A stretch of DNA of 64,000 nucleotides from the NCBI GenBank assembly GCA_045106415.1, contig JBGCEP010000043.1, forward strand, positions 1-64,000. Direction: 5' to 3'. Numbering within the stretch: position 1 is the first letter of the stretch; every line of letters starts with the position of its first letter. Made by a program: the position numbers and the translations under genes. Source of the DNA: Oligoflexales bacterium. GTDB lineage: Bacteria > Bdellovibrionota_B > Oligoflexia > Oligoflexales > Bog-1112. Of the stretch, positions 54,473-56,457 are shown piece after piece. The notes below the pieces were generated by a model. That model had not been told where the DNA came from and did not search any database. It worked only from the letters and a program-made list of their open reading frames with translations.

Positions 54473-55276
54473 ATGACACCAGTATCGCAAGCACTTGAGA
54501 GTTTCCAACAGACTATCTCACAACTTCGTTCTAAAGATGGATGCCCATGGATCAAAAGCCAAGACCATCTCTCTCTCAGAAAGTTTCTACTTGAAGAAAC
54601 TTATGAAGTTTTACACGAAATTAACGAACAACGTTACGATAGCAGCTTATGTCATGAACTTGGCGACCTTCTTTTACAGGTAGTTCTCCATGCTCACATT
54701 GCTTCAGAAAACAACCGCTTCACATTAAAGGACGTCATCGAATCGATTGAGCATAAAATGCGACACCGTAACCCTCACGTCTTCGAGAAAAAGCAAAAAC
54801 TAACAATAGAAGAAGTTCATCAACAATGGGAAAAAATAAAAATGGAAGAACAACACTTCAACACGTCAAAAATTAAAAACAGTCTGCAAAAAATTTCTTC
54901 CTACGGCCCAGCAACATTGCAGGCAGAAAAAATTGGGGATAAAGCCAAAGAGCTCAATTTTGACTGGTCACACGTAAACCAAGTGATTGATAAACTTCAA
55001 GAGGAGCTAAATGAAGTCAAAGATGCACTCCAAACTGGAAATATGAAACACACACAAGAAGAGATTGGCGACCTCTACTTCACAATCGCACAGGTCTGTA
55101 GACACCTGAATTTCGATCCTGAAGACACAGCTAAAAAAGGGAATATAAAATTTCTAAAGAGATTTCAAAAACTGCAAGAACTGGCAGAAAAGGCGAACAT
55201 TAATCTAAAACATTCAACACAATCTGAACTTGAAACTTTTTGGTTAGAAGCAAAAAAACAAGAAACGCAACATTAA
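54473..55276 (+). CDS. mazG: Nucleoside triphosphate pyrophosphohydrolase MazG
   Basis: GCPW, LLEETYEV, ELGDLLLQVVLHA, second domain EEIGDL. Confidence 0.95.
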   Translation: MTPVSQALESFQQTISQLRSKDGCPWIKSQDHLSLRKFLLEETYEVLHEINEQRYDSSLCHELGDLLLQVVLHAHIASENNRFTLKDVIESIEHKMRHRNPHVFEKKQKLTIEEVHQQWEKIKMEEQHFNTSKIKNSLQKISSYGPATLQAEKIGDKAKELNFDWSHVNQVIDKLQEELNEVKDALQTGNMKHTQEEIGDLYFTIAQVCRHLNFDPEDTAKKGNIKFLKRFQKLQELAEKANINLKHSTQSELETFWLEAKKQETQH

Positions 55277-55315
55277 AAAAAGCCTGGTTCTCTATAAAAG
55301 AGACCAGGCTTTTTT
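55275..55315. terminator. Bidirectional intrinsic terminator between mazG and rpsT
   Basis: A7-GCCTGGT...ACCAGGC-T6 between convergent genes. Confidence 0.85.
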
Positions 55316-55330
55316 CATCTTGAAGAAAGA

Positions 55331-55675
55331 CTACTTGCGCTTACGCACTTGAGTTTTCTTACGACGAGATGTTGTACTTGCAACTTGCAATTCGCCTTTT
55401 TCAGCCTTAACAACCATCTTTGTCAATCGTGTGACATTACGAGATGCGTTATTACGGTGAATCAAACCCTTTTGAGCAGCACGCTCAAGAAGACTTTGCG
55501 CTTGCTTTAAAAGAGAAGAAGCTGTTTGAACATCTCCCTCACCTTTAATAATAGCTTCACCTGCTTGACGTACCGACTTCACAACACTACGCATATGGCG
55601 TAAGTAACCTTTGTTACGTTGGTTGCGCACGATATCTTGACGAGCTCGTTTTTTTGCTGATTTATGATTTGCCAC
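55331..55675 (-). CDS. rpsT: 30S ribosomal protein S20 (C-terminally extended)
   Basis: MANHKSAKKRARQ, KGLIHRNNASR; GTG start. Confidence 0.95.
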   Translation of the reverse strand: MANHKSAKKRARQDIVRNQRNKGYLRHMRSVVKSVRQAGEAIIKGEGDVQTASSLLKQAQSLLERAAQKGLIHRNNASRNVTRLTKMVVKAEKGELQVASTTSRRKKTQVRKRK

Positions 55676-55696: not shown

Positions 55697-55813
55697 TTAA
55701 GAAGATGCTTTCGCCTGAGAACCTTGCTTTAAACGCAACAGCTTCTCATGCTTTTTTCGCTGTTGCTTACGGCGGCGCATCTTACGTGTTAGTCTATTAT
55801 CTCCACGACCCAT
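55697..55813 (-). CDS. Small basic protein, candidate ribosomal protein (bTHX/bS22-like)
   Basis: MGRGDNRLTRKMRRRKQQRKKHEKLLRLKQGSQAKASS (38 aa); AGAGGAG SD; fills the rpmB-rpsT gap. Confidence 0.75.
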   Translation of the reverse strand: MGRGDNRLTRKMRRRKQQRKKHEKLLRLKQGSQAKASS

Positions 55814-55832
55814 TGTCGCTCTCCTCTATTTA

Positions 55833-56063
55833 CTACTTCAGTTTCAAACCGGCTCTGCGAGCGTATGCATCCAAACCCAACTTATCAATCGTACGAATAG
55901 CAGCTGCACTCACACGAAGGCTGATAAGACGACCAAGATCATCTGACCAAAATCTTTTACGCTGAAGATTTGGTAAAAAACGGTGCTTACTCTTGGTATT
56001 AGAGTGAGACACACGGTGCCCACTTTGCACACCCTTACCGCTTAATTGGCACACTCTAGACAT
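55833..56063 (-). CDS. rpmB: 50S ribosomal protein L28
   Basis: [10 protein letters not shown]...[21 protein letters not shown] at 56063 overlaps the rpsR stop. Confidence 0.95.
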
Positions 56064-56457
56064 CAGTCTCTCCTCGTTCACTAGATTCAGCGTCAGAACC
56101 TTCACGAGACTCTCTCTCGCCTTCTTCTGAACGTCGAACATTGCCACCACGACGGAAACTAGCCGCTGCAAACGTTTGTGCAACATTTTGCATTTCACCT
56201 GAGAAACCACGTTCTGTAACGTGAGCAACAGATGGAGCTAAAAGACCTAAGTAACGAGCACGTTTGATTGCAAGTGTAATCTTCGCCTGTTGTGCTTCAG
56301 TTGCACCTGAAATACGACGAGGAATAATCTTACCACGATCAGTTACGAATCGTTTTAAAATCTCTGCCTGCTTATAATCAATAATAAGCCCCGGATCTAC
56401 AGTGCGCTTTCTGCGCATCAAAAACCGGCGACGCTTTTTTTTGGCTGATGTTCTCAC
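56056..56457 (-). CDS. rpsR: 30S ribosomal protein S18 (no Cys, C-terminally extended)
   Basis: IDYK...[18 protein letters not shown]...[11 protein letters not shown]. Confidence 0.95.

Follow-up and report, generated by a model that had tools for sequence, protein, structure and literature searches.

A conserved small basic protein gene in the rpsR-rpmB-rpsT operon of Oligoflexales: a candidate ribosomal protein outside the bTHX and bS22 families

We describe a small open reading frame (ORF), here called the sORF, that encodes a 38-residue basic protein in the gap between the ribosomal-protein genes rpmB and rpsT of an Oligoflexales bacterium (assembly GCA_045106415.1, contig JBGCEP010000043.1; phylum Bdellovibrionota_B of the Genome Taxonomy Database, GTDB). 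The window, meaning the whole stretch of DNA that was analysed, comprises positions 1 to 64,000 of that contig. The sORF is a real, conserved and selected protein-coding gene and belongs to a family that spans three GTDB phyla. A slight balance of probability, in our judgement, favours its product being a small ribosomal or ribosome-bound protein that would use an N-terminal loop and a basic helix to bind ribosomal RNA (rRNA).

That the gene is genuine follows from several lines of comparison. When the sORF protein alone was used as query, a match was obtained in 40/41 related genomes, with two extra weak matches besides, and a profile built from 20 sequences (A1) matched 124/131 genomes of the window's phylum with one copy each; among genomes at least 90% complete, the count was 81/83. 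An earlier, sequence-only reading of this DNA, which had proposed a real small gene within a ribosomal-protein operon and had staked that proposal on its conservation, was borne out on both points. The frame was open in all 20 loci inspected, beginning with ATG in 19 and with GTG in one and preceded in every case by a Shine-Dalgarno (SD)-like motif, and such a motif also lay upstream in 74/91 homologous loci. Variation falls chiefly on third codon positions: across the first 22 codons of 62 distinct coding sequences, the summed column entropy at codon positions 1, 2 and 3 was 15.0, 14.7 and 31.6, respectively. Pairwise codon differences in frame comprised 14143 synonymous versus 13316 non-synonymous changes, as compared with 2116 versus 27261 and 1353 versus 26990 in the two shifted frames.

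The sORF is translated as MGRGDNRLTRKMRRRKQQRKKHEKLLRLKQGSQAKASS, from an ATG at 55813-55811 to a TAA at 55699-55697 of the minus strand. Its coordinates, its translation and the Pfam-identified neighbours (Table 1) all agree with the original placement of an ORF with an AGAGGAG SD sequence in the rpmB-rpsT gap. The stop codon of rpmB is separated from the sORF ATG by 19 nucleotides (nt) and the sORF stop from the start of rpsT by 21 nt, and the end of rpsR overlaps the start of rpmB by 8 nt. Because the spacing is this tight and a consensus scan of the minus strand found no terminator-like site among rpsR, rpmB, the sORF and rpsT, we infer that the four genes are co-transcribed. The block is flanked by priA (plus strand, divergent) and by a MazG-type gene (plus strand, convergent). 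Between the latter and rpsT lies a hairpin, GCCTGGTTCTC/GAGACCAGGC, set between an A run and a T run, which is probably a bidirectional terminator closing the rpsR-rpmB-sORF-rpsT transcript; its imperfect, bulged stem kept it from being flagged in the consensus scan, and Rfam gave leader-like matches below threshold only. Two neighbours extend past their Pfam matches. The bS18 gene (56056-56457, minus strand) encodes a long acidic Glu/Ser/Arg-rich C-terminal extension past the Pfam S18 domain (residues 24-73 of 133), and bS20 (55331-55675, minus strand), at 114 residues, carries a basic tail of about 25 residues (...STTSRRKKTQVRKRK) past the Pfam model match at residues 2-88.

Table 1. Features of the sORF operon in the window, and the bTHX genes found in other genomes.
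Feature	Position	Strand	Remarks
38-aa basic protein CDS (sORF), ATG...TAA	55697..55813	minus	Member of the family in the window's genome
Shine-Dalgarno AGAGGAG	55821..55827	minus	7 nt ahead of sORF ATG; read directly
rpmB (bL28)	55833..56063	minus	Directly upstream of sORF, same operon; Pfam PF00830, E 1.9e-26
rpsR (bS18)	56056..56457	minus	First gene of operon; Pfam PF01084, E 9.6e-22
rpsT (bS20)	55331..55675	minus	GTG start, directly downstream of sORF; Pfam PF01649, E 2.3e-22
Hairpin between A run and T run	55274..55315	.	Read directly in sequence
bTHX gene	L126:1501-1596	plus	High-GC genome; PF17070 33.8-42.4 bits (range of the three)
bTHX gene	L127:1483-1578	minus	High-GC genome; same range
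bTHX gene	L128:1468-1572	minus	High-GC genome; same range

The family consensus is MGRGDNRxTxKMRRRKxQxKKKxR, and past these conserved columns the tail is variable and rich in Lys, Ala and Pro. Across 118 members, the counts for the N-terminal columns are M1 in 118, G2 in 113, [RK]3 in 99, G4 in 93, D5 in 111, N6 in 111 and R7 in 108, and those for later columns are [TS]9 in 114, K11 in 109, [MV]12 in 96, Q18 in 89, K22 in 115 and [RK]24 in 99. From the 118-sequence alignment, AlphaFold2 predicted a coil at residues 1-9 and a single helix at residues 10-37, with a mean pLDDT of 92.1 and a pTM of 0.53; high confidence for a lone isolated helix carries little information, which tells against leaning on the prediction when a role is proposed. 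Both bS21 and bL36, the two small ribosomal proteins checked, are present in the window's genome; the idea that the sORF replaces either was therefore rejected, and its product would supplement these two instead of substituting for them.

The family reaches well beyond the window's phylum. A profile of the 118 members (A2) found it in 73/151 sampled genomes of a second, Bdellovibrio-type phylum (holding locus L061) and in 60/201 sampled genomes of a third (holding the Kofleriaceae locus L056), the N-terminal motif being covered in 42 of these 60 matches. When 185,579 species genomes were scanned for MG[RK]GDNR[LRK]T, 44 loci were confirmed, in records labelled Oligoflexales, Pseudobdellovibrionaceae, Bdellovibrionales/Bdellovibrionia, Bradymonadales, Kofleriaceae, Nannocystaceae, Myxococcales/Myxococcota and 'Deltaproteobacteria', the remainder being one 'Proteobacteria', one 'bacterium' and two probably mislabelled bins. 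The term 'lineage-specific', used in the sequence-only reading, was thus too narrow for a family that spans three GTDB phyla. Its companion claim, that standard gene callers miss the gene, holds in part: the window's exact protein is already on record as a called gene, and many relatives are likewise recorded as called 'hypothetical protein' genes. Public protein collections contain 164 representative clusters at E <= 0.001 and 416 family proteins at E <= 0.01; every named one is a 'hypothetical protein', a precomputed Pfam domain is recorded for none of them, and the nearest clusters in the protein atlas carry that same label throughout.

Searches of Pfam and NCBIfam at E <= 10 with the sORF, 20 relatives or 118 relatives gave no relevant model, and the scattered matches that did appear were single-member chance matches. 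Against the Protein Data Bank (PDB; 177,635 distinct chain sequences, E <= 10), profiles A1 and A3 matched nothing, and the single sORF sequence matched only bL20c, at E 9.1. Longer or fused forms are not systematic in the family; the one found, of 147 residues, is probably a gene-calling fusion. Separately, three 45-residue members (P0195, P0270 and P0273) fall in a 90% identity cluster with 'leucyl-tRNA synthetase' proteins of 837-839 residues, which suggests that the small gene adjoins leuS in some metagenome contigs, where gene calling joined the two. No description of the family was found in the literature searched (main texts of open-access papers and bioRxiv preprints), nor any paper with both bTHX and Bdellovibrio, and neither that literature nor the PDB sequence search yielded a ribosome structure from Bdellovibrio, Myxococcus or the carrier phyla. 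The family is undescribed; its probable kind, lineage-restricted tiny basic ribosomal proteins, is already known, and a recent preprint indicates that lineage-specific small ribosomal proteins are still being named from cryo-electron microscopy (cryo-EM; bioRxiv 10.64898/2026.07.03.736309).

In the window's phylum, rpmB is followed on the same strand by the sORF, with gaps of 14-110 nt, in 31/36 distinct loci, and rpsR, rpmB, the sORF and rpsT stand all together in 25/36. The same rpmB-sORF arrangement was seen in 13 of the 44 loci from the species-genome scan. A second and distinct ribosomal arrangement occurs in another phylum, where the sORF lies directly upstream of rpsR in three loci (L076, L123 and L125). 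Ribosomal neighbours of the sORF therefore recur in two different arrangements, yet they are not universal. In one genome the sORF directly follows a gene for an HU-type DNA-binding protein (PF00216; L097:959-1447, plus strand). Divergent members in eight loci of the phylum of genome G337 (L130, L131, L132, L134, L135, L137, L138 and L139) begin MGMGRK, MGKGRK or MGRGRK and retain the helix KMKxRKxQAKKKARI; in the four such loci that were checked the gene is monocistronic, with a PNP_UDP_1 gene on one side and a TPR/periplasmic-binding gene on the other, and one MGMGRK/MGKGRK-type member has the same sequence as an NCBI 'hypothetical protein' of Bacteriovorax stolpii. Of the features generally expected of a ribosomal protein, a conserved position in a ribosomal-protein operon is therefore present in the window's phylum and fails in other lineages, and the combination of a core single copy with high-expression codon usage is present as well.

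Codon usage was taken as a proxy for expression. The codon score averages, over the codons of a gene, the log2 ratio of ribosomal-protein to genome-wide codon frequency; the highly expressed reference comprised 21 ribosomal-protein genes from contig C37, and the background all ORFs of at least 200 residues. By this measure the sORF scored 0.236, as compared with 0.144 for rpsT, 0.105 for rpmB, 0.091 for rpsR and a genome median of -0.109. When its codons were redrawn for the same amino acids from genome-wide usage, the score was -0.151 +/- 0.109, with 7/10000 draws reaching the observed value, and when they were redrawn from ribosomal-protein usage it was 0.149 +/- 0.109. Judged by this ribosomal-protein-like codon choice together with the strong SD sequence, the sORF is probably highly expressed.

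Operon position and codon usage make a ribosomal role the best reading of the sORF, and to this extent the original proposal of a new ribosomal protein is supported; the idea that it links bTHX with bS22 is not. We suggest that the sORF is co-transcribed and translated with rpsR, rpmB and rpsT, and that its product would place the loop (residues 1-9) in an RNA pocket, with the helix (residues 10-37) running along a groove and neutralizing phosphate charge and the variable tail facing the solvent. Several observations weigh against a place on the ribosome. The PDB sequence searches matched no solved ribosome chain, and a single basic helix would suit DNA- or RNA-binding away from the ribosome equally well. 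The similarity to bTHX amounts to 8 columns at 41% probability, and the bTHX-like motif is not essential to the family, because MGMGRK and MGKGRK relatives lack its Asp-Asn. The gene neighbourhood also has its exceptions, and outside the window's order ribosomal genes are usually not adjacent. In the window's own phylum, 5/36 loci are without a ribosomal neighbour, all from one genus and one relative (one of their proteins has the same sequence as an NCBI 'hypothetical protein' of Pigmentibacter). Elsewhere, the sORF follows bamA (Omp85) and skp (OmpH) in 8/12 second-phylum loci (L115-L120, L122 and L124); in Kofleriaceae-type genomes it sits between bamA and a 4HBT thioesterase gene; and four second-phylum loci with MGxGRK variants have it on its own, with convergent genes of unrelated kinds on either side. 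Unrelated neighbours are also found for many genuine small ribosomal-protein genes.

These exceptions are what give substance to a different explanation, in which the sORF encodes a basic nucleic-acid-binding protein that is not stoichiometric on the ribosome, such as a nucleoid-associated peptide, an RNA chaperone, or a ribosome assembly or hibernation factor, and in which an operon with ribosomal genes would be shared in one order only. Contexts that vary by lineage (bamA-skp, thioesterase, HU at L097, monocistronic), a composition and single helix that fit DNA as well as RNA, and the lack of any matching chain among solved ribosomes are all consistent with it. However, the rpmB-rpsT position is stable across a whole order, with gaps of 14-110 nt, and a second, separate juxtaposition with rpsR exists; the ribosomal-protein-like codon choice and the near-universal single copy in the phylum likewise argue for the ribosome. 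We consider a non-ribosomal nucleic-acid binder unlikely, if quite conceivable.

Descent from bTHX calls for closer comparison. Small and basic, bTHX lies buried in the 30S head, within 16S rRNA at h41/h42 (PMC5737520), and the preprint cited above reports that Thermales and Bacteroidetes are the only groups in which it is ubiquitous (bioRxiv 10.64898/2026.07.03.736309). A search with the Thx model PF17070 brought up three genuine bTHX genes, all in the phylum of the Kofleriaceae locus (Table 1). Their sequences read MGKGDxRTKRGKIxxGxxG..., and a profile of the three matches Thermus Thx chains in the PDB at E 1.6e-11, which confirms the statement in the sequence-only reading that bTHX begins MGKGDxR. 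These Myxococcota-type genes fall outside the range of 'Thermales and Bacteroidetes' given in that preprint (10.64898/2026.07.03.736309), and bTHX was present in 1/201 and 3/151 sampled genomes. Their neighbours encode an Na/Ca exchanger, a SAM hydroxide adenosyltransferase, a MoxR-type ATPase, a histidine kinase, a lysine-decarboxylase-like protein and a PEP-utilising enzyme. Positional orthology between the two families was rejected, as the three bTHX loci adjoin neither bamA-skp nor ribosomal genes.

By every model tested, the sORF family is not a member of bTHX. PF17070 (cut-off 29.7 bits, E <= 10) matched neither the sORF, nor 20 relatives, nor any of the 118 members, and had no match in the window's genome; it matched 0/131 genomes of the window's phylum above the cut-off, with no weak match at sORF loci among the matches listed, a reading tempered by the 38 weak matches that fall outside those listed and by HMMER filters, which can drop weak matches. 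The NCBIfam library gave no bTHX match for the sORF or its relatives. Aligning the family with the three bTHX sequences in hhalign covered columns 1-8 only, with a probability of 40.6%, an E-value of 2.9e-4 and a score of 20.3. Column-shuffled bTHX alignments in which Met1 was kept scored 7.7 +/- 1.8, with a maximum of 14.6, and 0/300 reached the observed score, so the bTHX-like N-terminus seen in the sequence-only reading does exceed what composition-matched shuffles produce.

What could still be argued from these results is that the sORF is a strongly diverged true homologue, a remodelled descendant of bTHX in which the N-terminal RNA anchor was kept, the Gly-rich body was replaced by a long helix, and the protein would occupy the h41/h42 pocket of the 30S head near uS13. 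The same MG[KR]GDxR start in the family, in the three-genome bTHX set and in Thermus Thx (with D5, N6 and R7 kept as counted above) would fit such a history, as would the hhalign score, the similar size and charge, and the finding that the sORF holds the sole instance of MG[KR]GD.R among the 5.9 million six-frame residues of the window's genome. The families also show no overlap, since none of the 131 genomes has Thx above the cut-off and the three bTHX-bearing genomes had no sORF-family match at E <= 1, but with n=3 such complementarity is not significant. Set against descent, the likeness ends at residue 8, the bTHX core GKIxRGxxGxxRP is absent, and family variants without Asp5-Asn6 exist. 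No gene neighbourhood is common to both families, the Thx and NCBIfam bTHX models are silent on the sORF family as described, and the comparison itself was picked after the likeness had been noticed. For these reasons we regard descent from bTHX as doubtful.

The sequence-only reading had further seen in the sORF a core of the 'KKKHxKLLR' type, and had taken the ORF as perhaps a link between bTHX and bS22. The window's family member alone does read RRRKQQRKKHEKLLR, including a KKHEKLLR stretch, and this is what a relationship to bS22/mS38 (COX24_C) would build upon. Among the 118 members, however, Lys occupies position 22 in 115 and His in 2, with Leu at position 26 in just 5, so that the core is private to this one protein and is no feature of the family. 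The COX24_C model PF08213 (cut-off 23 bits) matched neither the sORF, nor 20 relatives (0/20), nor the 118 members (0/118), and its two weak matches in the window's genome lie elsewhere than at the sORF; in the model comparison that had been proposed as a check, then, neither the Thx nor the COX24_C model recognizes the family. Profile and single-sequence searches of the PDB matched no bS22 or mS38 chain, the sole match being the bL20c chain at E 9.1. A protein atlas cluster with 26% COX24_C members came up with a score of 0.81, below the tool's threshold for a lead, and was rejected as PF08213 matches no family member. Kinship with bS22/mS38, or a bridge between it and bTHX, is therefore very improbable and is effectively excluded at the sequence level. 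A second atlas lead, DUF6800 (PF20607; score 0.90), was also rejected, with no match in the window's genome or in the 118 members. A true DUF6800 protein does occur in 1/201 sampled genomes (G301, L129:1483-1650, plus strand); it is a small basic protein, MGIKRGERRGELARRRKRSMKVGKL..., unrelated in sequence to the sORF, and no mention of DUF6800 was found in the literature searched. Finally, that the sORF encodes no functional protein and either arose by chance or serves as an upstream frame regulating rpsT, as its shortness and its position just ahead of rpsT might suggest, is barely credible and effectively excluded, given an amino-acid sequence kept across three phyla and at least four different gene contexts, a synonymous excess confined to the sORF frame and a strong SD sequence of its own.

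Should the sORF protein be placed on the ribosome, Bdellovibrio-type bacteria and part of the Myxococcota would carry a subunit that is named in no database, hundreds of 'hypothetical protein' entries would gain a function, and a Pfam/NCBIfam family model could be added. The start held in common with bTHX provides a concrete, testable hypothesis on the binding site, and cultured organisms with family members in NCBI records exist, namely Pigmentibacter (P. ruber, WP_268892502.1) and Bacteriovorax stolpii (TDP54249.1). The shared start also bears on how tiny ribosomal proteins may evolve, with the anchor kept and the body swapped. If descent from bTHX were true, the bTHX lineage would be of much greater age and reach than the 'Thermales and Bacteroidetes' picture allows, and the ribosomes of two phyla of predatory bacteria would have a new subunit.

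Among known ribosomal proteins, the closest parallels in kind, though no sequence relation is claimed, are bS23 and bS24 of cyanobacteria, which the preprint describes as phylum-restricted, absent from E. coli and long annotated as uncharacterised (bioRxiv 10.64898/2026.07.03.736309); structural and mass-spectrometric proof exists for those two, whereas the sORF family is known from its genes alone. bS22 and mS38 are, like the sORF family, small Arg/Lys-rich helical peptides, from which the family differs in matching none of their models or PDB chains and in not conserving the KKHEKLLR likeness. With bTHX the resemblance is more specific: both are tiny (about 26-38 residues) and very basic, both start MG[KR]GDxR, so that the N-terminal MGKGDxRT-type motif is recognizable in the sORF family, and both have a Thr after that start, shifted one residue later in the sORF family (T9, as compared with MGKGDxRT). 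The sORF gene lies among ribosomal genes in the window's lineage, and burial in rRNA, the role of bTHX, is of the kind proposed here. Beyond the shared start the two proteins part, as bTHX continues into a Gly-rich body, (K/R)GKIxRGxxGxxRP, where the sORF family has the predicted helix KMRRRKxQxKKKxR instead; residues 9 onward are unrelated, and some family members (MGMGRK/MGKGRK) lack even the Asp-Asn of the motif. The first seven or eight residues that the two families share may stem from remote shared ancestry or from a like type of RNA anchor.

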